DNA of 64,000 nucleotides from Laetmonice hystrix (lineage: Eukaryota): NCBI GenBank assembly GCA_965235115.1, contig OZ249436.1, forward strand, positions 3,970,001 to 4,034,000, read 5' to 3'. Under the pieces are notes generated by a model that saw only the letters and a list, made by a program, of their open reading frames with translations, was not told the DNA's origin and did not search any database. Positions 32,280 to 64,000 of the stretch are shown piece after piece. The position numbers and the translations under genes were made by a program. The first letter of the stretch is position 1. Each line of letters opens with the position of its first letter.

Positions 32280-35200
32280 ACAGAGAGAGACAGAGAGAGA
32301 GAGACAGAGAGAAAGAGAGAGGGGAGAGAGAAAGGGAGAGCGAGAGCGAGACAGAGACATAGAGAGAGATAGGCCTATAGAGATATATCGGGTGGATAAA
32401 AAAAAACGCCCCGAACTTTAAACTCCAATATTTCAAAAAGTATTGATTGTAATTCAACGAAATTTTTCTTACTATCACTTCATGATGTTGTCTCTTAGTT
32501 GTTAATGTTACAACTCAATAGCTTCGATAATATTTCCGTAGCGCTAAAAACAAAAATCATTGTACAAAAGCGCAATGCCGGGCTAAAGCGAGTGGTAGTC
32601 GCACCAGAGTCCCTGGCCTCACACTAGAGTAGGTGGTCAATCGGTCCCCCGTTTTCACTTCATACTGCTCTCAGTCTCTTTTTACATGCGCCAATGCACT
32701 TCCTGATCTCTGATAGGGAATTATCTTCCCATTATTGGGAAATAAGCAGCGTTCTGAACGTGTTGCTAAACGTGATAATGATACGATTTCCCTTAAACTT
32801 CTGGTTACAGTCATATCGTCCTAATGTTGCAGTTTCTCTGTAGGGTTTGGCAAATTAAACATCTGGGTTTCTCTAGAAGTACTAGGAATAGCACATAATT
32901 TATTATATCTAGTGGTTCACAACATTTTACATATTGTAAAACATGCAAAAACTAAATATTGAAAACTTTTGTACCCAAGGTACAATGTGGTGCATCAAAC
33001 AGGTGTCAAATTGGACACCTGGCAGCTGCATGATATTTGACCTAATTCCGGCATTGTGTTTTTAGACACTGATTTTTGTTTTTAGCGCCACGGGATTAAT
33101 ATCAAAGCTATTGAGCTGAAACTTTAACATACAAGAGATAATATCATGAAGTTATATTAAGAGAAATTTTATTGAATTATAATGCACAGTTATTGAAATA
33201 TTAAAGTTTAAAGTTCGGGGCGTTTTTTTTTATCCACCCGATATATATAGAGAGGGAGAGAGACAGAGAGAGGGAGAGAGGGAGAGAGAGAGGGGAGGGA
33301 GGGAGGGAGAGATAGAGAGACAGGCAGACAGACAGACAGACATGCAGACACAGAAACAGGGAAAGAGAGAAGCAGCGGATGCTTCTAATGCTGTTTTCGA
33401 TCCCGTGCATGGTTGGGATTGCCAAGTGGGCTCATTCAGGGTTTCGATCCCGTGCATGGTTGGGATTGCCAAGTGGGCTCATTCAGGCTTTCGACGCAGG
33501 GCAATGACAAACAAAAACATGAGGCAGCTAGACAATTTTAAAAAAAATTGTTATTAAAGGCGAAGCCATTATACTCTCCCCTAGCAAAATGGCCTTGCCC
33601 TCCAGGACTTTCTTTATAAGCAAATCACTGGGGGTGTAGGGGGGATGGAAAGAGCGAACATGGCCTATATGTAAGCCGATATGTATAAGATACCTTAATA
33701 TTGTATTCAATTTTCAAGGACGACCGTGGCAGTTGGCCCACCCAAGATATTATCAGGGTTCGACGACTGGAAATACCGCCGCAGAATAGTAGGTGGAACT
33801 TCAGATGCTGATGCATCATCAGAACATAGACCCAAGTTCTCCGCTAGAATCCTATACATGTATATCAGGTCAGGGTCCCGTCTCACTAAAGGCTGGTTAA
33901 TAACCAGATCGTTAAGTTAACATAGGAGTGAATGGAATGCTGCTGGTTACAGTAACCATCAGCCTTCCATTCACTCCTATGTTAACTTAACGATCTGGTT
34001 ATTAACCAGCCTTTAGTGAGACGGGCCCCAGGTAGCTGCTTTAAGATCCAATGTGTTAGGATCCACCATGTCTGATGTAACGTTCCAATGTGTTAAGTTC
34101 CACAATGTCTGATGTTAAGATCCAATGTGTTCAGTTCCACAATGTCTGATGTTAAGATCCAATGTGTTTGGAGAAACACAAAGTCTGATGTAACTTTTGG
34201 TGACCCGCTTCCTCTGCAGGTGTGGCGTCGGCTGCAGGGACAGCTAAAGGAGGCGACATCTCGCCTCATCCTCTGGGGTTCCTCTTTCAAACGGATCGAA
34301 GGTACGCCTATCACTCAACCTCCTATTGTATACAGACAACCTAGCTGCCTACAGCCCCCCCCCTACCATTATCAAATCCCTGGATCCCCCACTTGGTTAA
34401 AGAGGGGACTGAAAAATTCCATAATATTCGATTTTTTTTTATCATACATCGTCCGTTTCTACCATTTTATAGACACACATGTAGGACTAGTTTAACTTTC
34501 AAGGTGCCACAAGCTCGGCAAAGATGTCTTCAATCCCATTAGTAGCTAACAAGTCATCCGTACCCTATTGCTAACAAGTCATCCGTACCCTAGTATCTAA
34601 CAAGGCCAAGATCTGACATTAACCGTTTCTCATGCAGGGGTGTTTGGGAATGGTGTATCGTCGTACTTCCGGTTCCTGCGCTGGCTCTTCTTGCTTAACG
34701 TCATCATATTCACACTCCTGTTCCTGCTTGTCATCGTGCCTCAGGTGAGCTAACGTCATCATATTCACACTGACAGCTTGTCATCGTGCCTCAGGTGAGC
34801 TAACGTCATCATATTCACACTCCTGTTCCTGATTGTCATCGTCCCTCAGGTGAGCTAACGTCATCATATTCACACTCCTGTTCCTGATTGTCATCGTGCC
34901 TCAGGTGAGCTAGTCCCCTCGTCAACATCCCCACTAGAGGGTTAGCAATAGGCCCCCTGGATTCGGATTAACTTTTTTTACACACGCTGTACTGATAGAT
35001 TTAAAGTTTTTACCACCAAATTTCTGTCGTCAAAATGTTACAATGTTTGACCTTCAGGCGGCATTCACGGAGGTTTCTCTTCACAGCAGCCATGACAACT
35101 CCAGCCAACCCATTCCCTCCAACCTGACGTCACGGGAAACCTTCAATGGGACGTGTAGTGCCAAGTACAAGGCAGACATCGACTTCTCTTTTGTGCAGTT

Positions 35201-38200
35201 AAGCCTTGATTTCGCACAAGGCACTGTAAGTATCGGATAAAGCTATCTACGTGTTATACTTTGCGAGGTATAATATAGTGTGGCCTTGAATTATCGACTT
35301 ATATGCGGGCCAATACATACGTAGGTTCCCACTCCGTTTGGAGCGCATGGCTAGTAGTATATGGACATGGGCCTTAGTAGTAGGCCTATGTGGAGGGTGT
35401 TACCTGAGCCTCTGGAAATTACAAATTATAACTGGATGCTGTTCCTATATAGGGGTTTTATATTTAAAAGTCGAAGTTCGACAATGTTTTTATGCCAACC
35501 CGACATATGCGGGCCTACGTAGTGGCCCACTCCGGTTAAGGGACATCGCTAGTAGTCTATGGACATGGGCCTTGGTATACGGCGGCGTAACCTAAGTCTA
35601 TGGACATGGGCCTTGGTATACGGCGGCGTCTATGGACATGGGCCTTGGTATACGGCGGTGTAACCTAAGTCTATGGACATGGGCCTTGGTATACGGCGGA
35701 GTAACCTAAGTCTATGGACATGGGCCTTGGTATACGGCGGCGTAACCTAAGTATATGGACATGGGCCTTGGTATACGGCGGCGTAACCTAAGCTAGTCTA
35801 TGGACATGGGCCTTGGTATACGGCGGCGTAACCTAAGTATATGGACATGGGCCTTGGTATACGGCGGCGTAACCTAAGCTAGTCTATGGACATGGGCCTT
35901 GGTATACGGCGGCGTAACCTAAGTCTATGGACATGGGCCTTGGTATACGGCGGAGTAACCTAAGTATATGGACATGGGCCTTGGTATACGGCGGTGTAAC
36001 CTAAGTATATGGACATGGGCCTTGGTATACGGCGGCGTAACCTAAGTCTATGGACATGGACCTTGGTATACGGCGGCGTAACCTAAGTCTATGGACATGG
36101 ACCTTGGTATACGGCGGCGTAACCTAAGTCTATGGACATGAGCCTTGGTATACGGCGGTGTAACCTAAGTCTATGGACATGGGCCTTGGTATACGGCGGT
36201 GTAACCTAAGTATATGGACATGGGCCTTGGTATACGGCGGCGTAACCTAAGCCGAGAGGAAATTAAAACCGGATTCTTCTCTCAAAGTAAACGAAAAGGA
36301 CATCTGTGTTACCGTGGTCTCTCCTCTGCGCAGGGTTGGATGGAAAATACGGTGTTGTTCTACGGGGTGTTTACAAACGGTAGATTATCTCTGGATGGAT
36401 CGGGAAGTAAAGATGGTTATTCATACAACATGCCGCTAGCATACCTGACGGTGACGTTGGCCTACATGGCGATTTCCTTCTACCTCATCATCCAGCAGTA
36501 AGTTGTCGATAGCTTTCCAGGAGCGGAAAGGAAGCAGTCATTAAAAGTCAACGAAGTGTCCCTAAAGTCTGATATCTCAGCAATGATTTATGATATAATA
36601 ATTAAAAGTCTGATATCTCAGCAATGATTTATGATATGATAATTAAAAGTCTGATATCTCAGCAATGATTTATGATATAATAATTAAAAGTCTGATATCT
36701 CAGCAATGGTTTATGATATAATAATTAAAAGTCTGATATCTCAGCAATGATTTATGATATAATAATTAAAAGTCTGATATCTCAGCAATGGTTTATGATA
36801 TAATAATTAAAAGTCTGATATCTCAGCAATGATTTATGGTATAATACTTAAAAGTCTGATATCTCAGCAATGGTTTATGATATAATAATTAAAAGTCTGA
36901 TATCTCAGCAATGGTTTATGATATAATAATTAAAAGTCTGATATCTCAGCAATGGTTTATGATATAATAATTAAAAGTCTGATATCTCAGCAGTGATTTA
37001 TGATATAATAATTAAAAGTCTGATATCTCAGCAATGATTTATGATATAATAATTAAAAGAACCCACACACCTCCCGTGTGGTGATGCTGTTTTAGTCCCT
37101 TTAATAATCATTTACTTCACGTTTACCCCCAGAACTGATGTAAACTTTCGGGACGAGCTGGTCCACGGATTTAACAACCAGTCCAAGTCTCGGTGTTACT
37201 CGAACATGACGTTTGCCGGATGGGATTTCTCCTTGACCAATGTTCACACTGCACAGATCAGGCACAACAGTAAATACAACGAAATCAGGGTAAGGGACCG
37301 ATTCGTTTAGTCGGTGACGTCGCAGACTGCTCATCGCGCGTAGCCAGCGACGTCGCCGACAGGTCGCTGAGATCGCCCGGCGATGTCGGCCTAACGTCTT
37401 TAAACTATACCAAATCGTCGACACGGGCTCATATTCCCAACAACCTGTCAAATTTTTAGTCAGCGACACGCTAAGTAAGATTGGCTCCTAACAAAAATTT
37501 CAAGGATAACATTGGCATATAATTACATTAAGCTGTACGTTCGTTCTTCACTTTAATTCACTCCGTTTGTACACGTTTTGCAACAATGTATCTTGAAAGT
37601 TTTAGGGGCACCGTTGGCCAAGGGCGGGGGGGGGGGGATTGTAACATACCCACGAGGACATGTCAGGGTTAGAATAGTGCTAAGAATACTAATACATCTT
37701 GAGTTTATTCAAATTCTTCCAAATTCGTTGTGCTCTAGGAACGTTTGGCTGAGGAGCGGCTCCACGCCCGCCTCATCTCACGGACATTCAGACAGAAGTG
37801 TCGACTGTACGCTGCCCGACTTGTCATCAACGTGTTTGTCTTCGGGATTCTGGCCTGTGCTGCTTATATGATATACTACGCTACTCAGGAGTCAACAGAT
37901 GTAAGTCGGACAGAGCTCTCGGTTGTTTTGGGGGAAGAATATAAAAGTGTATATGTGAAAGGGAAGAAAAGAGAGAGAGAGAGCCAAGTCCTAACCTTGT
38001 TCGACCGTTGCAGTTCAAGGATCGTGAGGATTACTCGCGACAACCTAACCTTGTCGGACTGTTCATGTTGTAGTTCAAGGTTCGCGAGCATTACTCGCGA
38101 CAACCTAACCTTGTCCGACTGTTCATGTTGTAGTTCAAGGATCGCGAGGAGCACTCGCGACAACCTAACCTTGTCCGACTGTTCATGTTGTAGTTCAAGA

Positions 38201-41200
38201 ATCGCGAGGATTACTCGCGACAACCTAACCTTGTCCGACTGTTCATGTTGTAGTTCAAGGATCGTGAGGATTACTCGCGACAACCTAACCTTGTCCGACT
38301 GTTCATGTTGTAGTTCAAGGATCGTGAGGATTACTCGCGACAGCCTAACCTTGTTCGACTGTTCATGTTGTAGTTCAAGGATCGCGAGGATTACTCGCGA
38401 CAACCTAACCTTGTCCGACTGTTCATGTTGTAGTTCAAGGCTCGCGAGGATTACTCACGACAACCTAACCTTGTCCGACTGTTCATGTTGTAGTTCAAGG
38501 ATCGCGAGGATTACTCGCGACAACCTAACCTTGTCCGACTGTTCATGTTGTAGTTCAAGGATCGCGAGGATTACTCGCGACAACCTAACCTTGTCCGACT
38601 GTTCATGTTGTAGTTCAAGGATTGTGAGGATTACTCGCGACAACCTAACCTTGTCCGACTGTTCATGTTGTAGTTCAAGGATCGCGAGGATTACTCGCGA
38701 CAACCTAACCTTGTCCGACTGTTCATGTTGTAGTTCAAGGATTGTGAGGATTACTCGCGACAACCTAACCTTGTCCGAATGTTCATGTTGTAGTTCAAGG
38801 ATCGCGAGGATTACTCGCGACAACCTAACCTTGTCCGACTGTTCATGTTGTAGTTCAAGGATCGCGAGGATTACTCGCGACAACCTAACCTTGTCCGACT
38901 GTTCATGTTGTAGTTCAAGGATTGTGAGGATTACTCGCGACAACCTAACCTTGTCCGACTGTTCATGTTGTAGTTCAAGGATCGCGAGGATTACTCGCGA
39001 CAACCTAACCTTGTCCGACTGTTCATGTTGTAGTTCAAGGATCGCAAGGGTTACTCGCGACAACCTAACCTTGTCCGACTGTTCATGTTGTAGTTCAAGG
39101 ATCGCGAGGATTACTCGCGACAACCTAACCTTGTCCGACTGTTCATGTTGTAGTTCAAGGATCGCGAGGATTACTCGCGACAACCTAACCTTGTCCGACT
39201 GTTCATGGAGTATGTGCCTTCACTCGCCATCACCGTTCTCAATGTTGTCGTTCCTCTCTTGTTTATGAAAATTGTCATCGGTGAAGATTATCATCCGGAC
39301 TTCGAGGTTCGCATTACTTTAGCCAGGTAGTCATGTTTCTTTCTACATATAGGCATGTGCTTCTTGCAGAAAACGTTTACTTGTTCCCTCCTAATATATG
39401 TCAAAATGTATACAGTTACACAATCAGTCAAGATAACCCAAAGAAATCACTATCAAAGTTCTCGTAGTGTTGGATTGATTATCGTATAGTGAAGTCGAGT
39501 AGGCCCTAAATGTGCAGGAATTCCTTGCTTTGTAGGACCGTGTTTCTCCGCCAGGCGTCGCTAGCAGTACTTCTCGCGACGCTCTACTACCAGATTACGT
39601 GCGAGCCTCGTGATGACTGCCTGGTCGGACTACCCCCTGACTGTCCCCAATTACGGGTTAGAGTTTGTGTAAACATGGTCGGACTACCCCCTGACTGTCC
39701 CCAATTACGGGTTACAGTTTGTGTAAACATGGGCGGACAACCCCCTGACTGTCCCCAATTACGGGTTAGAGTTTGTGTAAACATGGGCGGACTACCCGCT
39801 GACTGTCTCCAATTACGGGTTAGAGTTTGTGTAAACATGGTCGGACTACCCCCTGACTGTCCCCAATTACGGGTTAGAGTTTGTGTAAACATGGGCGGAC
39901 TACCCCCTGACTGTCTCCAATTACGGGTTAGAGTTTGTGTAAACATAAAGAATAAGAATAAAGCGAAGCACTATTTCGACTTTGATTTTGACTCAATTGC
40001 ATTTATTGTTTCAGTGTTGGGAAACATACGTTGGGCAGAACTTGTACAGGCTGATCATCATGAATTTTGTTGTCAACGTTGCCACAGTTGTTGTCGTTGA
40101 TACTACTATACGGTTTGTAAAGCAGCACTTAATGCCAAAAAAGGCTTATCCATAAATTGCTTTTAATCATTTGAACTATAAGGATTTTTTTTTAAAAGGT
40201 TGAAAAGCAAAAAGTCTGAACGATAGAAAGAAGAATCGTTCTAAAAGGAAAAGGAAACACGTTTGAAAAAACATGACGCAACAGAGGCGTTGATGATAAC
40301 AAAATACAGCACGTTTTCACATTTTTAGAGTCATCGGTACAAAATGTTCACATCCGTTTCTGAAGATGCTTTGTGAAGAACAAGAATTCCCAATCCCAAA
40401 GAATGTTCTCGATCTCGTCTATGCTCAGACACTTTGTTGGTAAGTCTCACCATTATGTATGGCTCTATATTTCTAGTATAGCATAATGTTAGGTCTCACG
40501 TCCCATTATGTATGGCTCTATATTTCTAGTATAGCATAATGTTAGCTCTTACCATTATGTATGGCTCTATATTTCCAGTATAGCATAATGTTAGGTCTCA
40601 CCATTATGTATGGCTCTATATTTCCAGTATAGCATAATGTTAGGTCTCACGTACCATTATGTATGGCTCTATATTTCTAGTATAGCGTTATGTTAGGTCT
40701 CACCATTATATATGGCTCTATATTTCTAGTATAGCATAATGTTAGGTCTCACCATTATGTATGGCTCTATATTTCCAGTATAGCATAATGTTAGGTCTCA
40801 CCATTATGTATGGCTCTATATTTCTAGTATAGCATAATGTTAGGTCTCACGTACCATTATGTATGGCTCTATATTTCTAGTATAGCGTTATGTTAGGTCT
40901 CACCATTATATATGGCTCTATATTTCTAGTATAGCATAATGTTAGGTCTCACCATTATGTATGGCTCTATATTTCTAGTATAGCATAATGTTAGGTCTTA
41001 CCATTATGTATGGCTCTATATTTCTAGTATAGCATAATGTTAGGTCTCACGTCCCATTATGTATGGCTCTATATTTCTAGTATAGCATAATGTTAGGTCT
41101 CACCATTATGTATGGCTCTATATTTCTAGTATAGCATAATGTTAGGTCTTACCATTATGTATGGCTCTATATTTCTAGTATAGCATAATGTTAGGTCTCA

Positions 41201-44009
41201 CCATTATGTATGGCTCTATATTTCTAGTATAGCATAATGTTAGGTCTCACGTACCATTATGTATAGCTGTACATGTATATTTCTAGTATAGCATAATGTT
41301 AGGTCTCACGTACCATTATGTATGGCTCTATATTTCTAGTATAGCATAATGTTAGGTCTCACGTACCATTATGTATGGCTCTATATTTCTAGTATAGCAT
41401 AATGTTAGGTCTTACCATTATATGCCTCTACATTTCTAATGTAGTATGTGGCATTCCTTTCCAGGCTCGGTGCATACTTTGCACCGCTCGTTCCAGCTAT
41501 ATCTGTGGTTAGTCTATTTCTCCTCTTCTACTTGAAAAAGGTGAGTGTACTTAGAACGTTGAGACTTTCTGTGACTATACATCAGTGGGGGATCCTGGGG
41601 GCAGGGAGCTCGGGCCGCCCATAGATTCTTTTGATGAAGAAGCATTAGTAGGCCCTACAGTCATAATCAAATCATGCCAAGGGTAGCGATCGAGGTTAAA
41701 AAATTCACTGGGCCCCCCTTATCAAATTCCTGCATCCCCCTCTGTACATGTATGTAGGCTACATTTTAGTATAGGCCCGATCCAAACCAACCAACAAACC
41801 CCCAAGCGCTTTATTTATTCAATTAATTCGAAAAAATGATATATTTTGATCAATTAATAGTGCCTCGACCAATACTACTGCAGCTCATTTTTAACTTTCG
41901 CAGATTTTTAATACAGTAGCTAGGGTACTCAGTTGTAGGTGAAGATATGGAACCCGTAATGTACGCCCTGTTTCGACCTTGCCGTGTTGCAGGCCACGGT
42001 GTTGTACAACTACACGCCGTCCAAGCGTCCCTACCGGTCCTCCAGGTCACATGTTTTCTTCATGGTCGTCCTGCTGACTGCCTTCATTCTCTGCTGTCTA
42101 CCGCTCGGCTACTGCATCTGGAGGTAGGCGCCCTCTGACGGGAGGCGGCCGAAACACAGTCAGACCGATACCCGCCAGGGGTTCTATGGCGTCCATACTG
42201 TAATATTACCGATAGGCGGCGCTAGCGGTCTGACTGCGGGATTCTAAAAGGCTAAAGCAAACTAGAAATTGTTCAGTCCGAACAGGACGTCTCCCCTTTT
42301 TTAAAGTAATGACATCATATAATTTTTGAGAGGACTAATTAGTATGAAAGTAGTGTGTTGCAAAAGCAATGATATGGCTATGGCAGATTTTCTATGCGAA
42401 AGAAAAGATATAATAATAGTAGTAGCGGTATGTATGAAGGAATGTATGTATGTATGTATGTATGTATGTATGTATGTATGTATGTATGTATGTATGTATG
42501 TATGTATGTATGTGGGTAGGGGTGTGGGTGTGTGGGTGTGTGCGATGTGCCAGCTGTGGTAGGGAGTTGGTGGTTGTTGGTGGAGCGTGGAAGTGTTATG
42601 TAACTCAGTCAGGTGGCCAGGAGTATGGCCGGGGTTGCCGGGCACTGAGAACACTGAACGACCCCTGAACGAGCCTTGACTGCGCGGTTGTGGGATCTGC
42701 GGTGGTGGGGGACGGGCGGCCGGCCCACGATTTTTTCCCCCAAATTAGTTCCGGACCCCATTCTAGCTTTCATTGGCATACAGCCAATCAGTGAACGCCA
42801 GACTCTATCGCTCGCGATATGGACCGAACAGTGTCAGTGAATGTTTCTTATTGACACAGACATTAAGATCCACTGCTCAATTAGTGCCTATTTAACAATA
42901 ATTTTGGGCTAATATGAAAACCAACACTAGCCCTAGACCTAACCTTTACCCTAACCCAAACACACTGTCTCGCATCTCGCATGTCGTCGCCGGTATTCCA
43001 TAGCCATGTGTGTGATTGTTTCTGATTGGCTGTATGATCATGAGAATCCAGAACTAATGTGGGAAAAAAATTCGCAGCCGCCCGTGTAGGGGTTTGGGGG
43101 GGGGGGGGAGTTACCACGGCTGAGAAGGACGCCTGACTGGGGGTTGGCGGGGGTTGGCGGTGGTTGCCAGTGACAACGGCAACAGGTCACAGGCCGTGGG
43201 AGCGGGCCGCTGGGGAGTTGTTTACCGTTACGCGACCGTTTACGGAATGGTCCACTTCTAGGCCTAATAAGTCGGAAACTATTAACTGTAGAGAAAAACA
43301 CTTTGTAGCGGTTGTAGGCAAAGACCTGGAGATTCTTCTCCCCCAAGTTTCATAAAGATACGGTCAGGGGTTTGGGAGATATAAAAGGCTTCTCTAAGGT
43401 TGGCACGGTACTGAGGTCAAAGGTCATGATGTGCTAAAAATAGCAAAATCCCGAGAAAATATCCACAGTTGTCTTTTCCCCAAATTAGGACTTTCTAGCC
43501 CCGGTAGTTTTTGGCCTGATGTCAAGTAAGCGCCCAACCACTTCAAAAAATGTTGAAGGTCACACAGAGGTCATTTGGGGTCACACGAACGTGTCCTCCG
43601 GGAAATCTAAATTTGGCACATAGATGACCCTGCTGACCAAATTTGATGTTATTCCACCCAGTATTTTCCGAGTTATGGCTTTGGCAAAAAAATGGCACGT
43701 GCCATTTTTTTTAGATCAGCCGCCATCTTGAAAGTTCTAGGTCAACCAAACTGGTTTTCGAACTTGTCCAAGCCCCGGATGAAAGAAGGCCGACATACCA
43801 ATTTTGGGTCGATTCAGGCTATTTTTCTCGCGTTATCGTGATCACAGCACAAGTTGGCACATTCGTGCCACGGAAGAGGTCAAAGGTCAAATGGCACTAT
43901 AATTAGAAACAAAGATTTTTCAGAAGGTTCTGTCGGGGCATTTCAAATTTGATAAGTCCCTCTCTAACAGTGGCCGAGTTATTCCAAAAAGAAGGAAATA
44001 AAAGAAACA

Positions 44010-44072
<63 letters not shown>

Positions 44073-46030
44073 CGGTCAGAAACAGCGTGCAAAACAAAAC
44101 GTCTCCCCCAGCTGGGGGGAGACGTAATAATGAAAAAAGAAAGGGAATTATCTAACATCTAAATATCTCGAACATTCTGCGGTTTCTGAAAGTCATTGTA
44201 AAAAGATCATAACACAGTCTTGTAAGAAAACGGCAAAGGGTTTCAAGATTAACCTAAGAACTTTCAGAAAGGACGAGGTGGGGTTTTAACGATGTTTTTA
44301 GCAAAATCTTTTCCTTGAACTTCACAGAATTGTTAAAACCTTGGTAAACGTTTGTTTTTATATGGACTCCACGTTTAAGCCTCATTATCCGCTTTAAGAC
44401 TAATGTAATTTTAGCATGTCAGCTTTCAAAGGCAAAGTGTCCAACCATCCAGATTTCGTCGGAATTTTCCCGGTTTTATTTGAAAAGTCCCGAATCCCGG
44501 CGCAACCTCGTTCGGGATAGCAAAAATCCCAATTTTGAAGATCTGCTCCCACAAGCAACGAGCCAAGAAAGATATTTTTGTCAAAAGAGGACAGGGGGAG
44601 AGGGGGGTTATCAAAAAAGTACTCTTTGTACGCTTGTGAAAATGTTGAAAATGTTGAGCCACCCCTAACTGTTATCGCCTAGAACGTACCTCTCTGCCCG
44701 CCTGACTGAAATGACTGTTGTTCAGGGTTGTACCATCACGCGGCTGTGGACCTTTCCGACAAGATGACCACGTTTATGACGTCATCACAGAGGCCGTCCA
44801 ATCATTGCCCAGATTCGTCCAGTACATCTTAACGTTGATGACGTCAACAGCATCCCTCGTGGTTCTCTTGGTTTCACTCATGTATGTTTTGTCCATCTCC
44901 TCCTTTAATTCCAAAATCTATAAATAGCACATGTCACGATCACATGAATCTTACATTATTAGGATCAAGGAAACGAGAGTGCTCCTTTAAGAGGGAGGCT
45001 TACAATAACTCCAGTTACCTGGCTTAGACTGACTGACGAGGCCTAATATAAAGGGTTATGAGCTAAACCAGTAAAGAGTAGGCACGAACGACCAAGAGAT
45101 GAGGTAGATTTTGAAATCCCATTTGAAATGCCTGCATTTGGAATCGCGTGTAGGTATATATTTTTTTTATTAACATAACTTTAACTTTAACTTTAACATA
45201 ACTTTTACCAGTATGAAGGGACTCGGAGATAAGTACAGTCCGGTCTTCCGTCCCTTCTGATCTGGACTCAACTCGAGTTCCTTACATGTCGTGTTATGGT
45301 ATTAATGATTACACGACTCTTATTTGCAAACCTAGCTCTTTTTTTTATCCCGGTCAGGGTTAAATATCATCGTAAATAATTAATACTACTCGTTGGTTCA
45401 CACGAGTGATGGAGTGAGGTATTTTGCAGCCTCCTCGTGTACTACTTCCGGTCGACGTCCAGAGGTCGCCAGGGTGTGATCGCACTCCTCAGGGAGCAGA
45501 TAGCCTTGGTAAGTCGATAATACCTTGTCATACTGTAGCAAAGGTCTGAACAGACTGTGTTGGTGGTACGCCTGAACCTGAGGACATCTATATATATCGA
45601 CCCCCCCCCCCCCCGCCCGCCCCCCGGCAAGCGAAGTTTTCAAAATGTCCGGTTAGACCCTCACCTGTATGCTATTTATAGCTCCTCTCTTGCGCCATAT
45701 ATGCTCGAAATATCGCTTTTTTTGTCTACCACACTAAGATCTATGACATGAATCTGATCTAAAAATCGATAACTTCGTCCCCACGTGACCATTGACCGGT
45801 CACTCAGTATACAAGCTATCCATTATCGCCCTCAGGAGTCACGTGACAAGCAGTTCCTCCGGGCCCGCCTCAACGAACTGACGGTAGAGGGCGCTGCAGG
45901 GGACCAGGTGGTGCCAGAGTCGCCAGTCGCGGCTGGCCACGTGACAGTGGACACCCCTCCTGGACACCATCAACTGTTTAATGTTCACAGAGCGCCCATG
46001 GCTGATACCGAAAGTTACGCTTCAAACTGA
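32099..46030 (+). CDS. TMC7: Transmembrane channel-like protein (TMC7-like), multi-exon; 5' end uncertain
   Basis: Exons: 32099(ATG; or acceptor 32094)-32196 (less certain), 33719-33788, 34220-34301, 34638-34744, 35058-35225, 36334-36497, 37133-37289, 37739-37900, 39154-39326, 39536-39656, 40015-40112, 40329-40439, 41465-41540, 41993-42123, 44726-44881, 45430-45508, 45836-46030 (TGA). TMC hallmarks: [113 protein letters not shown]. The family is firm; the paralogue name is tentative. Confidence 0.9.
32221..32370. repeat. (GA)n microsatellite
   Basis: Pure then degenerate GA run that resumes at ~33250-33350, beyond the inserted MITE. Confidence 0.9.
32388..33241. mobile_element. Tc1/mariner-like MITE with ~190-bp TIRs
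   Basis: TA|TCGGGTGGATAAAAAAAAACGCCCCGAACTTTAAAC ... GTTTAAAGTTCGGGGCGTTTTTTTTATCCACCCGA|TA; inverted similarity extends inward (gcgctaaaaacaaaaatca / tgatttttgtttttagcgc). Confidence 0.85.
33395..33487. repeat. 47-bp tandem duplication
   Basis: tttcgatcccgtgcatggttgggattgccaagtgggctcattcagg x2. Confidence 0.9.
33874..34028. mobile_element. Near-perfect 155-bp hairpin MITE (PIF/Harbinger-like, CAG TSD)
   Basis: CAG|GGTCCCGTCTCACTAAAGGCTGGTTAATAACCAGATCG...CGATCTGGTTATTAACCAGCCTTTAGTGAGACGGGCCC|CAG; the arms pair almost to the centre. Confidence 0.85.
34042..34195. repeat. ~37-bp degenerate tandem repeat (~4 copies) just upstream of a TMC acceptor
   Basis: gttaagatccaatgtgttcagttccacaatgtctgat and variants. 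Confidence 0.8.
34696..34911 (+). repeat. 55-bp repeat x4 duplicating a TMC exon 3' end plus donor
   Basis: aacgtcatcatattcacactcctgttcctgcttgtcatcgtgcctcag|gtgagct; donors after 34744, 34794, 34849 and 34904. Confidence 0.92.
35553..36251. repeat. 41-bp minisatellite (~17 copies), TMC intron
   Basis: Unit agtctatggacatgggccttggtatacggcggcgtaaccta. Confidence 0.95.
36563..37058. repeat. 41-bp AT-rich minisatellite (~12 copies), TMC intron
   Basis: Unit aaaagtctgatatctcagcaatgatttatgatataataatt. Confidence 0.95.
37991..39207 (+). repeat. 60-bp minisatellite (~20 copies) made of a TMC acceptor plus exon start
   Basis: Unit ttgtag|ttcaaggatcgcgaggattactcgcgacaacctaaccttgtccgactgttcatg; the last copy runs into the unique exon (FKDREDYSRQPNLVRLFM-EYVPSLAIT). 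Confidence 0.95.
39623..39946 (+). repeat. 54-bp minisatellite x6 made of a TMC exon 3' end plus donor
   Basis: Unit ggtcggactaccccctgactgtccccaattacgg|gttagagtttgtgtaaacat. Confidence 0.95.
40443..41421. repeat. 49/53-bp minisatellite (~19-20 copies) filling almost a whole TMC intron
   Basis: Unit ccattatgtatggctctatatttctagtatagcataatgttaggtctca(cgta); the intron is 40440-41464. Confidence 0.95.
41583..41744. mobile_element. CAG...CTG MITE with 5-bp TSD
   Basis: CAGTGGGGGATCCTGG / CCTGCATCCCCCTCTG, flanked by TACAT on both sides. Confidence 0.65.
42260..44128 (-). mobile_element. Helentron-associated non-autonomous element (HINE/DINE-1-like) with nested insertions
   Basis: One end has the stem-loop acgtctccccc-agct-ggggggagacgt (44099-44125) next to a (GAAA)n microsatellite. 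The other end has the matching subterminal acgtctcccc (42287-42296), a short hairpin tgttc-agtcc-gaaca and aactagaaa. Both flanks are A/T-rich. Confidence 0.7.
42443..42512. repeat. (ATGT)n microsatellite
   Basis: Pure tetranucleotide run. Confidence 0.95.
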
Positions 46031-46201: not shown

Positions 46202-46783
46202 TGTATGCTGACCAGGGATTATCATTCCTTGACCTGGCGTAATGTATGCTGACCAGGGATTATTATTTCTTGACCTGGCGTAATGTATGCTGACCAGGGA
46301 TTATTATTCCTTGACCTGGCGTAATGTATGCTGACCAGGGATTATTATTCCTTGACCTGGCGTAATGTATGCTGACCAGGGATTATTATTCCTTGACCTG
46401 GCGTAATGTATGCTGGCCAGGGATTATTATTCCTTGACCTGGCGTAATGTATGCTGACCAGGGATTGTTATTCCTTGACCTGGCGTAATGTATGCTGACC
46501 AGGGATTGTTATTCCTTGACCTGGCGTAATGTATGCTGACCAGGGATTATTATTCCTTGACCTGGCGTAATGTATGCTGACCAGGGATTATTATTCCTTG
46601 ACCTGGCGTAATGTATGCCGACCAAGGAATCCTTGACCTGGCATAATGTATGCTGACCAAGAATTATTATTCCTTGACCTGGCGTAATGTATGCTGGCCA
46701 GGGATTATTATTCCTTGACCTGGCGTAATGTATGCTGACCAGGGATTATTATTCCTTGACCTGGCGTAATGTATGCTGACCAG
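46202..46783. repeat. 41-bp minisatellite (~14 copies) at the TMC 3' end
   Basis: Unit tgtatgctgaccagggattattattccttgacctggcgtaa. Confidence 0.95.
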
Positions 46784-51600: not shown

Positions 51601-54600
51601 AAATTTATCTCTTTCACAACATTAATTTCCCGCGAGAAAAGATCTATACAAATTAGCATTTTTTCCTAGTTGGCGTCGGCTTATTTCATGCAGAATTGAA
51701 GGACCCTATTAAATTTAATGAGATGAAATTCTTGTAGAGTCTAGAGTAGACTGATTAAGTTACCTGTGGATTAAGTTACTGTGGATTATCAGAGTCAGGA
51801 GGATAGGTTTTGTCAGACATTGTATTCGGGGTCTAGTAGGTCTATAATCTAAGAGAGGCAGTCGGTAATCTTACCCGATCATCCCCCAATCACGTGACAG
51901 TTGCTGTACGACGCGGGCGTCTCCAGGACGACGACTATGACGATATTCTCCTTCACGTGGATCGTAGTCGTCATCAACACGTGCGTCCTCCTTCCTAAAT
52001 ACAAGATTCCGGTCCTTGAGGCTGACGGCCACCCCCTCCGCCGGGACGGCCACCCCCTCCGCCGGGACAGCCACCCCCTCCGCCAGGACCAGGGACCCTT
52101 CACGTCCTCCCCACCGGCCGCCTCCCCGGACTCCGCCACCGAACTCCGCTACATCCCCACCAACACGGCCATCGTCGACGCACACAGTACCTACATCCCT
52201 GAGTACGAGTTGCTGTGGTCGCGAGGCCTGCTGCAGGAGTCGGAACCTGTCGACCTGGAGCTGTCGGAGGTCGGAGGTAGCTCAGGTCAGTCAGACCCAC
52301 CGCCAACGTCAGCTAACACCACCGGTGACAGCCGGAAACACTGGGCGACGTACATCCGGTCATCAGTTTTCTGGCTCTTCCTGTACTGGTTCGCCGCCCT
52401 CCACCTGCGCGCGCAGGTCTTTATCAGTACCTTTAACACGTGGGTATACACCTTGGTGAAAGGAGACGCACAGCAGGGTGAGTTAAACAGGGTGTGCTTC
52501 ACTGGGGATAAAATATGGGTGAGTTAAACAGGGTGTGCTTCACTGGGGATGGAATATGGGTGAGTTAAACAGGGCCTGCTTCACTGGGGATGGAATATGG
52601 GTGAGTTAAACAGGGTCTGCTTCACTGGGGATAAAATATGGGTGAGTTAAACAGGGTCTGCTTCACTGGGGATGGAATATGGGTGAGTTAAACAGGGTCT
52701 GCTTCACTGGGGATGGAATATGGGTGAGTTAAACAGGGTGTGCTTCACTGGGGATAAAATATGGGTGAGTTAAACAGGGTGTGCTTCACTGGGGATGGAA
52801 TATGGGTGAGTTAAACAGGGCCTGCTTCACTGGGGATGGAATGTGGGTGAGTTAAACAGGGTCTGCTTCACTGGGGATAAAATATGGGTGAGTTAAACAG
52901 GGTCTGCTTCACTGGGGATGGAATATGGGTGAGTTAAACAGGGTCTGCTTCACTGGGGATGGAATATGGGTGAGTTAAACAGGGTGTGCTTCACTGGGGA
53001 TGGAATATGGGTGAGTTAAACAGGGCCTGCTTCACTGGGGATGGAATATGGGTGAGTTAAACAGGGTCTGCTTCACTGGGGATAAAATATGGGTGAGTTA
53101 AACAGGGTCTGCTTCACTGGGGATAAAATATGGGTGAGTTAAACAGGGTCTGCTTCACTGGGGATGGAATATGGGTGAGTTAAACAGGGTCTGCTTCACT
53201 GGGGATGGAATATGGGTGAGTTAAACAGGGTCTGCTTCACTGGGGATGGAATATGGGTGAGTTAAACAGGGTCTGCTTCACTGGGGATGGAATATGGGTG
53301 AGTTAAACAGGGCCTGCTTCACTGGGGATAAGGTGACGTAACGTGACGTACCATTTTCCGTGACGTAATATGACGTGACGTGACGACAAATTATACCGCA
53401 ACATGTTTCAGTGAGCCATTTCACCAACGTGTACGGTTTCATCAGTGTATCCAGTATCGTCATCTCGCCAGTGTCTGGTATCATTATGGACATCCGCCGC
53501 AAACGGCTCAAAGGTCAGCAACCAAGTGGGCCTAGATACTGGCGTGAAATGACAAAAGGAAGCAAGTCCAACTTTCATCAAAATCGACTTAAGTGTAAAT
53601 TTCGATTCAGGGAAGTAAGTCCTATCTATCAATGGGTGTATTTCTGCTAAACATCCTTCTATAAAGCTATCAGTCACATGACAGAAGGAAGCATGCCCAT
53701 CCAACTGCACTGCATTTTTCGAAACTTGAACTTTTGGACTTGCTTCCTTTTGCCATTTCACGGCAGTATATTGTCTATCGGCCTACAGGCATACCTACAC
53801 ACATAACCAGTGGCATATTTAGAAAATCCAGAAGAAAATGAAGGGGGGCGGGGGTATCACTGGGCAATGTAGGAGCCTATAATTATATGTACATCTGTTC
53901 ATATCCCGGAGACATGTGTTTGGTTTATTTTAGCGAACATTTAGAGTCACAATTATCGTAGCTAGAATCCGATTTCTTTGGATGACACAGAAATGTTCTC
54001 CAATGTTTTGCAGTAAATGAACGTTATGGCTTGCTTGGTGCGATGGCAGCAGCGCCATCTTTAACCATCACCACGTCGGTTGCCATTCTGGTCAGCATGT
54101 TGACCTTGCTCAAGGTCGAATGGTGTATCTACGTCACAATCGCAGCGTTCACTATTCTTATGGTCTTCCTCTACCCAACCGGTATAGCATTTATTGGACA
54201 AACGTAAGTAGGTCGTTGTCCAACGCACAGCGAGCTGTGCAACCTGGAATATTTAGTTTCCCCACAATAAAGGTATCTTAGCTGCGTTTGGCACAAGGTC
54301 CCCTATTCCTCACTTTTAGACCCCGACCCTGCTGATTGATGTTTAAGTTGTCCGTCCTTCCTCGTTTTTAATATCTGTTGACAATCATTTAGAGCCTTCC
54401 CGGTGAGACTTGGGCCTATGTAGGATTTTATTTTTCGTACTAGATACTTTTATGCGCACGTAGTGGGATGTCTATAGGCCTACCTTTCGTTTCTCCCGCC
54501 AGGTGGCCCTCATGTCACTATGGAACCCTGTTCGGTGCGACTGTCACTGTGCTGGGGGTCGTGTCTTTCCTTCAGTATCCCTTTGTGATCTGGGCAGGTT

Positions 54601-59789: not shown

Positions 59790-62700
59790 GCCTCAACTCT
59801 AACACTAACCCTTCAACCCGTCCTCAGACCTTACACTAACCCTTCCACCCCGTCCTCAGACCTTACACTAACCCTTCCACCCCGTCCTCAGACCGTACAC
59901 TAACCCTTCCACCCCGTCCTCAGACCTTACACTAACCCTTCCACCCCGTCCTCAGACCTTACACTAACCCTTCCACCCCGTCCTCAGACCTTCCACTAAC
60001 CCTTCCACCCCGTCCTCAGACCTTACACTAACCCTTCCACCCCGTCCTCAGACCTTACACTAACCCTTCCACCCCGTCCTCAGACCTTACACTAACCCTT
60101 CCACCCCGTCCTCAGACCTTACACTAACCCGTCCACCCCGTCCTCAGACCTTACACTAACCCTTCCACCCCGTCCTCAGACCTTACACTAACCCTTCCAC
60201 CCCGTCCTCAGACCTTACACTAACCCGTCCACCCCGTCCTCAGACCTTACACTAACCCCTCCACCCCGTCCTCAGACCTTACACTAACCCTTCCACCCCG
60301 TCCTCAGTCCTTACACTAACCCTTCCACCCCGTCCTCAGACCTTACACTAACCCTTCCACCCCGTCCTCAGACCTTACACTAACCCTTCCACCCCGTCCT
60401 CAGACCTTACACTAACCCTTCCACCCCGTCCTCAGACCTTACACTAACCCTTCCACCCCGTCCTCAGACCTTACACTAACCCGTCCACCCCGTCCTCAGA
60501 CCTTACACTAACCCCTCCACCCCGTCCTCAGACCTTACACTAACCCTTCCACCCCGTCCTCAGTCCTTACACTAACCCTTCCACCCCGTCCTCAGACCTT
60601 ACACTAACCCGTCCACCCCGTCCTCAGACCTTACACTAACCCTTCCACCCCGTCCTCAGACCTTACACTAACCCTTCCACCCCGTCCTCAGTCCTTACAC
60701 TAACCCTTCCACCCCGTCCTCAGACCTTACACTAACCCTTCCACCCCGTCCTCAGAACTTACACTAACCCTTCCACCCCGTCCTCAGACCTTACACTAAC
60801 CCGTCCACCCCGTCCTCAGACCTTACACTAACCCGTCCACCCCGTCCTCAGACCCGTACACTAACCCTTCCACCCCGTCCTCAGACCTTACACTAACCCG
60901 TCCACCCCAGCCTCAACTCTAACACTAACCCGTCCACCCCGTCCTCAGACCTTACACTAACCCGTCCACCCCGTCCTCAGACGTTACACTAACCCTTCCA
61001 CCCCGTCCTCAGACCTTACACTAACCCTTCCACCCCGTCCTCAGACCTTACACTAACCCTTCCACCCCGTCCTCAGACCTTACACTAACCCGTCCACCCC
61101 AGCCTCAACTCTAACACTAACCCGTCCACCCCGTCCTCAGACCTTACACTAACCCTTCCACCCCGTCCTCAGACCTTACACTAACCCTTCCACCCCGTCC
61201 TCAGACCTTACACTAACCCTTCCACCCCGTCCTCAGACCTTACACTAACCCTTCCACCCCGTCCTCAGTCCTTACACTAACCCTTCCACCCCGTCCTCAG
61301 ACCTGACACTAACCCTTCCATCCCGTCCTCAGACCTTACACTAACCCGTCCACCCCGTCCTCAGACCTTACACTAACCCTTCCACCCCGTCCTCAGACCT
61401 TACACTAACCCTTCCACTCCGTCCTCAGACCTTACACTAACCCGTCCACCCCGTCCTCAGACCTTGCACTAACCCTTCCACCCCGTCCTCAGACCTTACA
61501 CTAACCCGTCCACCCCGTCCTCAGACCTTGCACTAACCCTTCCACCCCGTCCTCAGACCTTACACTAACCCTTCCACTCCGTCCTCAGACCTTACACTAA
61601 CCCTTCCACCCCGTCCTCAGACCTTACACTAACCCTTCCACCCCGTCCTCAGACCTTACACTAACCCTTCCACCCCGTCCTCAGACCTTACACTAACCCT
61701 TCCACCCCGTCCTCAGACCTTACACTAACCCGTCCACCCCGTCCTCAGACCCGTACACTAACCCTTCCACCCCGTCCTCAGACCTTACACTAACCCGTCC
61801 ACCCCGTCCTCAGACCTTACACTAACCCTTCCACCCCGTCCTCAGACCTTACACTAACCCTTCCACCCCGTCCTCAGACCTTACACTAACCCTTCCACAC
61901 CGTCCTCAGACCTTACACTAACCCGTCCACCCCGTCCTCAGACCGTACACTAACCCTTCCACCCCGTCCTCAGACCTTACGCTAACCCTTCCACCCCGTC
62001 CTCAGACCATACACTAACCCTTCCACCCCGTCCTCAGACCTTACACTAACCCTTCCACCCCGTCCTCAGACCTGACACCAACCCTTCCATCCCGTCCTCA
62101 GACCTTACACTAACCCTTCCACCCCGTCCTCAGACCTGACACCAACCCTTCCATCCCGTCCTCAGACCTTACACTAACCCTCCACCCCGTCCTCAGACCT
62201 GACACCAACCCTTCCACCCCGCCCTCAGACCTTACACTAACCCTCCACCCCGTCCTCAGACCATACACTAACCCTTCCACCCCGTCCTCAGACCTTACAC
62301 TAACCCGTCCACCCCGTCCTCAGACCTTACACTAACCCCTCCACCCCGTCCTCAGACCTTACACTAACCCTTCCACCCCGTCCTCAGTCCTTACACTAAC
62401 TCTTCCACCCCGTCCTCAGACCTTACACTAACCCTTCCACCCCGTCCTCAGACCTTACACTAACCCTTCCACCCCGTCCTCAGACCTTACACTAACCCGT
62501 CCACCCCGTCCTCAGACCTTACACTAACCCTTCCACCCCGTCCTCAGACCGTACACTAACCCTTCCACCCCGTCCTCAGACCTTACACTAACCCTTCCAC
62601 CCCGTCCTCAGACCTTACACTAACCCTTCCACCCCGTCCTCAGACCTTACACTAACCCTTCCACCCCGTCCTCAGACCTGACACTAACCCTTCCATCCCG

Positions 62701-64000
62701 TCCTCAGACCTTACACTAACCCTTCCACCCCGTCCTCAGACCTTACACTAACCCGTCCACCCCGTCCTCAGACCTTACACTAACCCTTCCACCCCGTCCT
62801 CAGACCGTACACTAACCCTTCCACCCCGTCCTCAGACCTTACACTAACCCTTCCACCCCGTCCTCAGACCTTACACTAACCCTTCCACCCCGTCCTCAGA
62901 CCTTACACTAACCCCTCCACCCCGTCCTCAGACCTTACACTAACCCTTCCACCCCGTCCTCAGTCCTTACACTAACCCTTCCACCCCGTCCTCAGACCTT
63001 ACACTAACCCTTCCACCCCGTCCTCAGACCTTACACTAACCCTTCCACCCCGTCCTCAGACCTTACACTAACCCGTCCACCCCGTCCTCAGACCTTACAC
63101 TAACCCTTCCACCCCGTCCTCAGACCGTACACTAACCCTTCCACCCCGTCCTCAGACCTTACACTAACCCTTCCACCCCGTCCTCAGACCTTACACTAAC
63201 CCTTCCACCCCGTCCTCAGACCTTACACTAACCCTTCCACCCCGTCCTCAGACCTTACACTAACCCTTCCACCCCGTCCTCAGACCGTACACTAACCCTT
63301 CCACCCCGTCCTCAGACCTTACACTAACCCTTCCACCCCGTCCTCAGACCTTACACTAACCCTTCCACCCCGTCCTCAGACCTTACACTAACCCGTCCAC
63401 CCCGTCCTCAGACCTTACACTAACCCGTCCACCCCGTCCTCAGTCCTTACACTAACCCTTCCACCCCGTCCTCAGACCTTACACTAACCCTTCCACCCCG
63501 TCCTCAGACCTTACACTAACCCTTCCACCCCGTCCTCAGACCTTACACTAACCCTTCCACCCCGTCCTCAGACCTTACACTAACCCTTCCACCCCGTCCT
63601 CAGACCTTACACTAACCCTTCCACCCCGTCCTCAGACCTCACACTAACCCTTCCACCCCGTCCTCAGACCTCACACTAACCCTTCCACCCCGTCCTCAGA
63701 CCTCACACTAACCCTTCCACCCCGTCCTCAGACCTCACACTAACCCTTCCACCCCGTCCTCAGACCTTACACTAACCCTTCCACCCCGTCCTCAGACCTT
63801 ACACTAACCCTTCCACCCCGTCCTCAGACCTTACACTAACCCTTCCACCCCGTCCTCAGTCCTTACACTAACCCTTCCACCCCGTCCTCAGACCTTACAC
63901 TAACCCTTCCACCCCGTCCTCAGACCTTACACTAACCCTTCCACCCCGTCCTCAGACCGTACACTAACCCTTCCACCCCGTCCTCAGACCTTACACTAAC
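59790..64000. repeat. 32-bp C-rich satellite (~130 copies, runs off the window end)
   Basis: Unit gaccttacactaacccttccaccccgtcctca; the period is confirmed by recurrence at a 480-nt (15-unit) offset. Confidence 0.97.

Follow-up and report, generated by a model that had tools for sequence, protein, structure and literature searches.

Tandem repeats that straddle an intron–exon boundary, and thereby multiply splice signals, are known in amphioxus as mirage minisatellites, and have been reported in Adh3, the globin genes BflGb6 and BflGb9, troponin C and PGBD5 (PMC3087553, PMC3902484). In the excerpts available from these reports, RT-PCR suggested regular splicing, and a block of NMD is not mentioned. 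In the human CBS allele c.844_845ins68, as described in the extracts consulted, splicing selects the distal member of a pair of identical acceptors and removes the copy (PMC1802585, PMC7490669), a choice credited to G runs located between the sites (PMC1802585). The VNTR in intron 7 of human F7 supplies five to nine identical functional donors, and the exon-proximal one was reported to be used alone; in-frame spare donors are unused as well, the choice being positional rather than a matter of stop avoidance (PMC1557585). In the intron 18 VNTR of ABCA7, use of a spare donor within the repeat results in a premature stop subject to NMD; retention of one unit, exon skipping, and an expression 33% lower between the longest and shortest genotypes were also reported (PMC5954066).

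We analyzed a window of 64,000 nucleotides of Laetmonice hystrix DNA (contig OZ249436.1, positions 3,970,001 to 4,034,000), in which intron 8 of a putative TMC7-like gene carries an array that is a mirage minisatellite, a class already described in amphioxus (PMC3087553). Its unit is of minisatellite size and arranged head to tail (60 nt, 20.0 copies, 96% matches), it spans the boundary and carries a duplicated splice signal (54 exonic plus 6 intronic nt; 20 AGs), and the host gene is intact, the array ending with the authentic exon (659 aa through unit 20). As far as the amphioxus repeats are described in the excerpts cited, the likeness includes a tandem unit that straddles the boundary and multiplies splice signals (acceptors and donors), a unit length inside the 10–72 bp quoted for Adh3, and edge copies that have diverged more. 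Haplotype length differences, demonstrated in amphioxus, are hinted at here. Unlike BflGb6, with 3–6 copies, the TMC array has 20; also unlike the amphioxus repeats, its unit has 6 intronic nt, so that the branch-point motif is exon-derived, and its acceptor triplet is an in-frame stop.

With CBS 844ins68, the TMC array shares the duplication of an intron end plus an exon start with identical 3′ splice sites, but the CBS allele, according to the extracts, has two copies of 52 intronic plus 16 exonic nt and contains G runs, whereas the TMC unit lacks them. The F7 VNTR, on the published excerpt, resembles two donor arrays of the same TMC7-like gene, the repeated signal being a donor there and an acceptor in the intron 8 array. 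ABCA7 represents the published form of the “rheostat” that the first-pass annotation had raised, with expression falling with repeat length; as excerpted, it concerns a donor and a 25-nt unit and was measured on RNA, whereas the TMC array concerns an acceptor and is known from DNA. None of the other papers listed in the literature search appeared to deal with a multi-copy acceptor array.

The intron 8 array and its host gene

The start of exon 9 is repeated 20 times in tandem (copies begin at 38014 + 60k, k = 0 to 19), placing an acceptor every 60 nt inside intron 8, with AGs that end from 38013 to 39153 (Table 1). The presence of 20 tandem copies of an acceptor plus exon start, noted in the first-pass annotation, was confirmed by the copy-by-copy positions and by TRF (period 60, 20.0 copies, 96% matches, score 2241, far above chance). 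The unit is formed by 54 coding nt (FKDREDYSRQPNLVRLFM) and 6 intronic nt. The first acceptor (ending at 38013) is CAG, as had been annotated, but the sequence does not establish the ancestral status ascribed to it; the remaining 19 (38073 to 39153) are TAG. All 19 junctions read Met-Leu-stop in the TMC frame, in agreement with the previous claim that the next acceptor is itself a stop, and unit 20 continues into EYVPSL.

Table 1. Features of the TMC7-like gene and its arrays (positions in the window).
Feature	Position	Strand	Remarks
TMC7-like gene, 15 modelled exons (numbered 3–17)	34220..46030	+	659 aa without internal stop; PF07810
Second array: exon 4 donor, 4 copies	34696..34912	+	Spacing 50–55 nt; spare donors all break the frame or stop
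Exon 8, strong GTAAGT donor, phase 0	37739..37900	+	Junction and phase shared with three paralogues
Intron 8, unique purine-rich 5′ part	37901..37989	+	
Exon-like stretch carrying the first (CAG) acceptor, with CTAAC at −20	37990..38013	+	Equals unit end minus 6 nt
19 spare 60-nt units, each ending in a TAG acceptor that is an in-frame stop	38014..39153	+	
True exon 9, 173 nt, after the 20th acceptor	39154..39326	+	Intact frame
Third array: exon 10 donor, 6 copies, 54 nt	39622..39946	+	5/5 spare donors in frame and stop-free; multi-copy depth

The 20 copies comprise 11 distinct types with a mean divergence of 3.7%, and the units of the assembled allele are approximately 2% off the consensus. 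No spare AG has been lost, and 15 of the 18 spare TAG acceptors are identical to the last acceptor from −30 to −1. A CTAAC motif resembling a branch point is present in every copy, with its A at −26, but at −20 for the first acceptor. Since only 6 nt per unit are intronic, a working branch-point motif has to be supplied by coding sequence; for exon 9, both this motif and the pyrimidine stretch lie in sequence of unit 19 that derives from the exon. The CAG edge acceptor is present on both alleles (two distinct entry contigs).

When the exons are joined via the last acceptor, the 659 aa reading frame has no internal stops. Three exons matched PF07810 with 32–38 bits, above the Pfam cut-off of 25 (40015–40134, 40324–40467 and 41439–41567). 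The model starts at exon 3, and the candidate exons 1–2 are out of frame as drawn. Among named homologues, the best are TMCs of brachiopods, annelids and molluscs (about 33%–43% identity); identity to a protein named TMC7 is 42.5% over 630 aa, and five of the ten clusters looked up bear the name TMC7 or TMC7-like. Judging by the names of these matches, the gene appears to be TMC7-like. The top protein match (P0003) was set aside as unrelated repetitive sequence, and a search for proteins homologous to the 58-aa exon yielded 13 candidates, none with E ≤ 0.001. The TM3–TM4 segment obtained via the last acceptor has 49 aa, and measures 42–54 aa in 26 of the 28 full-length homologues aligned (380–1100 aa, out of 100 matches); one extra unit would lengthen it to 69 aa. 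The open frame and the homologue-like loop, together with the stops met from the other acceptors, bear out the annotation's claim that an intact channel results from the last acceptor alone.

Short-read depth and the second allele

In short-read contigs, the unit reached 8–17 times the single-allele depth (8.2–17.3 across three runs, all from one sample and one study). The pooled value was 12.5 single-allele equivalents, which is contig depth and not a copy number, while 11.4 is expected from the assembled allele alone and 22.8 from 20 units on both alleles. This weakly hints at a shorter second allele. The second allele shows two exonic differences, both synonymous, and 6 more that are intronic; positions 39282, 39343 and 39346 are among those that differ between the alleles.

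Origin of the array

In the assembled allele, an intron segment and the exon agree at 18 of 20 nt, with a local score of 15 that was reached in 0 of 300 shuffles; none of the other 13 acceptors in the gene scores above 8. The microhomology pointed out previously is thus real, but it did not hold up as a simple duplication seed: the matching sites (37990 and 38044) are 54 nt apart, and a simple microhomology crossover, which would predict that period, was rejected because the observed one is 60. A slip with a 6-nt bulge at the microhomology is a possible seed, and the stretch 37990..38013 is probably an eroded edge copy. Slippage or unequal exchange may have copied the last 6–7 nt of intron 8 together with the first 53–54 nt of exon 9, after which tandem-repeat turnover would have raised the copy number to 20.

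Other arrays in the TMC loci

We found 13 junction-spanning arrays in four of the six TMC loci of this genome, three of them in the TMC7-like gene; an uncertain array (C8 locus, 41 nt × 9) was excluded from this count. Six are located at acceptors and seven at donors, and their effects on the frame are of every kind. Judged by these six loci, splice-junction arrays are common in the genome. Two of the 13 keep the frame and contain no stop, one of them an acceptor array in which this applies to 10 of 10 spare sites; hence, a stop is no general design, and the special role that had been attributed to the stop and NMD is weakened. The number of intronic nt per unit in the six acceptor arrays is 6, 14, 32, 39, 44 and 49, the intron 8 array having the fewest. 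The homologous acceptor in three paralogues showed no array like that of intron 8. The earlier reading had overlooked the two donor-duplicating arrays of the TMC7-like gene, as well as the fact that mirages are a described class. All four array-bearing loci are situated no more than about 4 Mb from a contig end, and the two array-free loci further inward; we do not claim that arrays occur only near chromosome ends, as repeat cover along eight 5-kb samples of C1 was patchy (0.63 at 27 Mb, 0.50 at 43 Mb and 0 at 72.5 Mb).

Selection of the acceptor

The reading that we favour, with a probability of roughly 0.7, is that of a neutral mirage minisatellite from which the last acceptor is used. Use of the last acceptor agrees with the intact gene and with the TM3–TM4 length of the homologues. 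The varied frame effects of the 13 arrays also speak for this reading, as do the published cases: regular splicing suggested by RT-PCR in amphioxus, distal choice in CBS 844ins68, and exclusive use of the exon-proximal donor in F7. The spare copies drift neutrally: 4 of their 15 distinct variants are synonymous, close to the neutral share of 22% (p = 0.76), and the synonymous nature of both exonic differences of the second allele points in the same direction. Because the local signals of the copies are identical, acceptor choice must depend on position, and since an intact channel is obtained from the last acceptor only, the spliceosome must pick the last one among near-identical sites, in line with the earlier suggestion that 1 of 20 near-identical 3′ sites is chosen.

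The new last acceptor would be functional, considering that the codons copied for Pro-Asn-Leu happen to place a CTAAC 26 nt before the AG; the motif is observed, and it presumably serves as the branch point. By analogy with CBS 844ins68 and the amphioxus mirages, this acceptor may be favoured by its position, either through cross-exon pairing with the exon 9 donor or through unique exon 9 elements; it defines an exon of 173 nt, versus 233–1313 nt via the others. The 19 spare units, whose drift is observed, would be removed with the intron. Any leaked mRNA from a spare acceptor would carry a stop 173–1253 nt before the next junction and would probably be degraded, as a by-product with no selected function.

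Several observations count against this reading. The first acceptor combines CAG and CTAAC at −20 with a 113-nt intron and a strong donor, and either cross-intron pairing or first-come splicing could favour it. At +4 to +6, the exon 9 donor (GTAGTC) deviates from the consensus, which would weaken cross-exon pairing. The repeat unit contains no GGG, and it is to G runs that the distal choice in CBS is credited. The excerpts on amphioxus describe regular splicing with no mention of an NMD block, and at ABCA7 a spare donor is indeed used, with expression falling as the repeat lengthens. Finally, the choice of acceptor is here deduced from the sequence.

Masking of the spare sites by RNA structure was rejected, since the fold of three units (z = −1.75) was equaled by 10 of 200 shuffles. 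A 7-bp hairpin in each unit (DNA z = −2.66, 2/200) is also present in the true exon and cannot discriminate between sites. Re-splicing from within the array was likewise discarded; to the eye, all four GT sites in the unit make poor donors, and three of these shift the frame.

Alternative readings

An unlikely alternative is that the mirage leaks and behaves as a passive rheostat. A sizeable share of transcripts would skip exon 9 or use a spare acceptor, most likely that of unit 19 (233-nt exon), that of unit 18 (293-nt exon) or the first one; these transcripts would be destroyed, and productive TMC mRNA would fall with array length without any need for selection. ABCA7, as excerpted, provides a precedent (PMC5954066), the spare acceptors match the true one locally, and the pooled depth weakly hints at a short second allele; however, the scatter of this depth between runs of a single sample tempers the hint, regular splicing is described in the excerpts on amphioxus and F7, and in-frame stop-free arrays are tolerated in the TMC7-like gene and in one paralogue. 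A wider proposal, which we regard as rather improbable, is that the array is length-polymorphic and sets the level of productive TMC mRNA in a graded manner via its stop-bearing spare acceptors. With such arrays at very many junctions of this genome (13 in six TMC loci), the length of splice-site repeats would then generate variation in expression and isoforms throughout the genome of this animal, and would do so by fast mutation; in-frame arrays, by adding repeat peptides, would be part of this.

It is very unlikely that the long allele is weak or null, with cross-intron pairing taking the first acceptor, most transcripts being destroyed, and the animal kept alive by paralogues or by a second allele that is shorter. 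The quality of the first acceptor behind a strong donor, the depth hint, and the five further TMC loci in the genome would fit this possibility, but the 15 exons are unbroken in the assembled allele, the unit divergence of about 2% is comparable in size to the differences between alleles, so the array must have some age, and such arrays also exist in three other TMC loci.

Even less can be said for selected unproductive splicing, in which the CAG-to-TAG stop and the copy number would be kept to tune channel dose. All 19 repeated acceptors are TAG, versus the edge CAG on both alleles; CAG in their place would turn the array into an open repeat of 20 residues, and every spare AG has been kept. 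Nevertheless, a single founding change accounts for the 19 TAGs, and with 15 variants over 60 positions the chance of sparing the AG is near 0.6. The window from −20 to +3 contains 3 of the 15 variants (p = 0.11), no significant excess of conservation at spare acceptors; moreover, the homologous acceptors of three paralogues lack such an array, and the frame effects of the 13 arrays look arbitrary.

The chance that the genome holds a single unit, multiplied by the assembly, is negligible: no contig was found to span the whole array and the three runs come from one sample, probably the assembled one, but unit-to-unit junction contigs had a depth of 441–526 versus 21–54 in single-allele entry contigs, one contig carried a variant unit, the unit exceeded the single-allele depth in every run, and 11 unit types are distinct.

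Significance

Taken alone, the intron 8 array is an unremarkable example of a class already described. Gene predictors may mistake its spare units for exons. As a natural experiment, it offers 19 spare acceptors with equal local signals that differ by position only, and their usage could reveal whether exon or intron definition operates in an invertebrate and how the choice decays with distance. If length did tune expression, this array would give the ABCA7 VNTR a counterpart among invertebrates. As far as the literature searched goes, the 13 arrays in four of the six TMC loci extend mirages beyond lancelets.

Structure of the acceptor array and its host gene

The TMC7-like gene was modelled as 15 exons (34220-46030; the model lacks N-terminal exons) that, when spliced via the last acceptor, encode 659 aa with zero internal stops. 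A profile search gave PF07810 matches in three exons downstream of the array. Searching with exon 9 yielded 100 matches, and the model was aligned with the 28 of them that are 380-1100 aa long; the top aligned homologue, named TMC7 (Lingula), showed 42.5% identity over 630 aa, and further named matches came from molluscs, an annelid and a priapulid (names were obtained for 7 of 10 clusters). These sequence comparisons suggest that the host is an invertebrate, probably a lophotrochozoan, and do not place it further.

The reported position of the array was borne out by TRF (period 60, 20.0 copies, 96% matches, 38007-39207). Exon-start copies lie at 38014+60k, and the acceptor triplet is CAG at the first site and TAG at the remaining 19. 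We observed that, as the first-pass annotation had claimed, each spare junction reads Met-Leu-stop in the TMC frame, whereas EYVPSL continues from unit 20, and that only acceptor 20 leads to an intact channel in the 659-aa model. If a spare acceptor were used, the stop would lie 173-1253 nt upstream of the next junction. The TM3-TM4 segment has 49 aa in the model versus 42-54 aa in 26 of the 28 homologues (two are truncated), and would reach 69 aa with one extra unit, if the stop is ignored. Three paralogues share this phase-0 junction with a single exon start.

Eleven types were distinguished among the unit copies (mean difference 3.7%), and all but three of the 18 spare TAG acceptors are identical to the last one over positions -30 to -1. 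Every unit contains CTAAC, whose A sits 26 nt ahead of the following AG; at the first acceptor this distance is 20 nt. Since only 6 nt of each 60-nt unit are intronic, the smallest number among six acceptor arrays compared, the branch-point motif and pyrimidine stretch of the working acceptor are copies of coding sequence. A 7-bp hairpin occurs in each unit (38022-38040 and each 60 nt onward; DNA z=-2.66), unit positions 7-24 hold 11 of 15 variants, and CpG transitions account for 4 of 15. If intron 8 were retained, a stop-free frame of 509 aa (37739-39268) would run through the whole array as a 20-residue Cys/Ser/Arg-rich repeat and end 58 nt short of the donor of exon 9; a Pfam search of this frame gave no family above the cut-off.

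Choice among the acceptors

We consider, with a probability of about 0.7, that the array is a neutral repeat whose last acceptor is used. Position would select the acceptor, the exon-proximal site being preferred to give a 173-nt exon. This choice is supported by amphioxus mirages, tandem arrays spanning an exon-intron boundary, whose splicing looks regular by RT-PCR (PMC3087553), by the use of the distal acceptor in CBS (PMC1802585, PMC7490669) and by the exclusive use of the exon-proximal donor in F7 (PMC1557585). Against it, the first acceptor would give a 113-nt intron after a strong donor, the donor of exon 9 deviates from consensus, and the unit has no G run. In addition, spare sites leak at ABCA7, with an effect that scales with length (PMC5954066), which favors leaky, length-dependent splicing, an alternative that we regard as unlikely. 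Folding tests of the units revealed no RNA structure that discriminates among acceptors.

A null allele is improbable, and selected regulation even more so. Among 15 distinct variants in units 1-19, four are synonymous (neutral share 22%, p=0.76), and three fall in the -20 to +3 window versus 5.75 expected (p=0.11); therefore, neither coding constraint nor clear acceptor conservation or decay is evident in these units.

Read contigs were obtained from three runs of one sample, probably the one that was assembled. Over 39120-39700, unit-to-unit junction depth was 441-526, whereas two distinct entry contigs had 21-54 and the unique exon had 53-62; this is far above single-allele depth, so that an assembly artefact, with a single unit in the genome, is extremely unlikely. 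The two entry contigs represent two alleles and, judged by length and mismatch counts, both end in the CAG acceptor. Pooled unit depth equals 12.5 single-allele equivalents; 11.4 would be expected from the assembled allele alone and 22.8 from two alleles of this kind. This hints at a second allele with a shorter acceptor array, although the ratio varied from 8.2 to 17.3 among runs and contig depth is not copy number. The exon 10 donor array had a contig depth of 7.7 versus 3.0 expected from one allele, a hint that it is longer on the second allele. The second allele departs from the assembled one at six intronic sites and at two exonic sites, where both changes are synonymous. The contigs over 39120-39700 showed no spliced joint (none of the runs is recorded as RNA).

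Origin of the array

An intron/exon microhomology had been proposed as the seed of the duplication. The match is real (20 nt, score 15, 0/300 shuffles; score <=8 at the gene's 13 other acceptors), but a plain crossover there was rejected, because sites 54 nt apart cannot yield a 60-nt unit. The context of the first acceptor equals the unit end minus 6 nt, the gap falling between two GTT triplets. The exon-derived CTAAC motif may have allowed the first duplication to survive. Exon-like stretches also occur upstream of two of five paralogue acceptor arrays (p=0.02; 0/300) and are absent at the other three. We read such stretches before first acceptors as eroded edge copies, consistent with the escape of cluster boundaries from homogenisation noted for amphioxus mirages in PMC3087553. 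If so, the CAG site, previously taken as the ancestral acceptor, need not be ancestral. Alternatively, slippage at a match that predates the array, with 6 nt bulged out, may have formed the unit.

Other arrays in the gene, its paralogues and the window

Arrays cover 22.5% of the window, and 6 of the 14 modelled introns hold a long one.

Location and properties of further arrays (C1, contig of the same genome)
Array	Location	Strand	Properties
Exon 4 donor array	TMC gene		4 sites; spare donors disruptive
Exon 10 donor array	39622-39946		6 sites, 54 nt; spare donors 5/5 in frame, stop-free
L028, TMC paralogue	G000:C1:71433475-71435302	minus	43-nt array; 39 putative GC donor sites (GC-AG intron)
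L029, TMC paralogue	G000:C1:71439044-71439777	minus	51-nt acceptor array; 10 detected spare sites, all in frame and stop-free
49-nt array	40444-41438		begins 5 nt past exon 12 donor; 995/1025 nt of intron 12
41 nt x 14	46202-46783		directly after several AATAAA motifs, probable TMC gene 3' end
41 nt x 21	52476-53329		next gene, transporter-like by eye; starts exactly at donor, G-GTGAGT 21 times
32-nt array, at least 131 copies	59802-64000		extreme GC skew; extends past window end

An exact 41-nt period is common to five unrelated-looking arrays (35554, 36564, 46202, 52476 and 56524). Two exons of the next gene were searched without a Pfam match.

Thirteen junction-spanning arrays (6 acceptor, 7 donor; one further uncertain array excluded) were found in four of six TMC loci; six is a lower bound on the loci, and the 17-20 kb examined per paralogue did not always contain the complete gene. 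The positions of the six loci suggest that arrays might be tied to chromosome ends, but eight samples of 5 kb taken along C1 did not bear this out. With the first exon 10 donor the loop has 46 aa, compared with 42-48 in the five closest homologues; each spare donor would insert 18 residues, including two cysteines, into this loop, which precedes the TMC domain. Use of the L029 spare sites would add hydrophobic 17-residue repeats ahead of TM1.

Two of the 13 arrays are in frame and stop-free, one being an acceptor array in which this holds for 10/10 spare sites. Splicing may scarcely use the spare sites, or it may use them with products that are tolerated and need no NMD; on either view, the stop of the 60-nt array is not a general design. 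Such arrays in other invertebrates were not found in the literature searched, where most subscription papers are missing. As far as they could be tested, the features that define mirage minisatellites (PMC3087553, PMC3902484) are present in the 60-nt array; the class is already known from amphioxus, and the TMC array is an added case.
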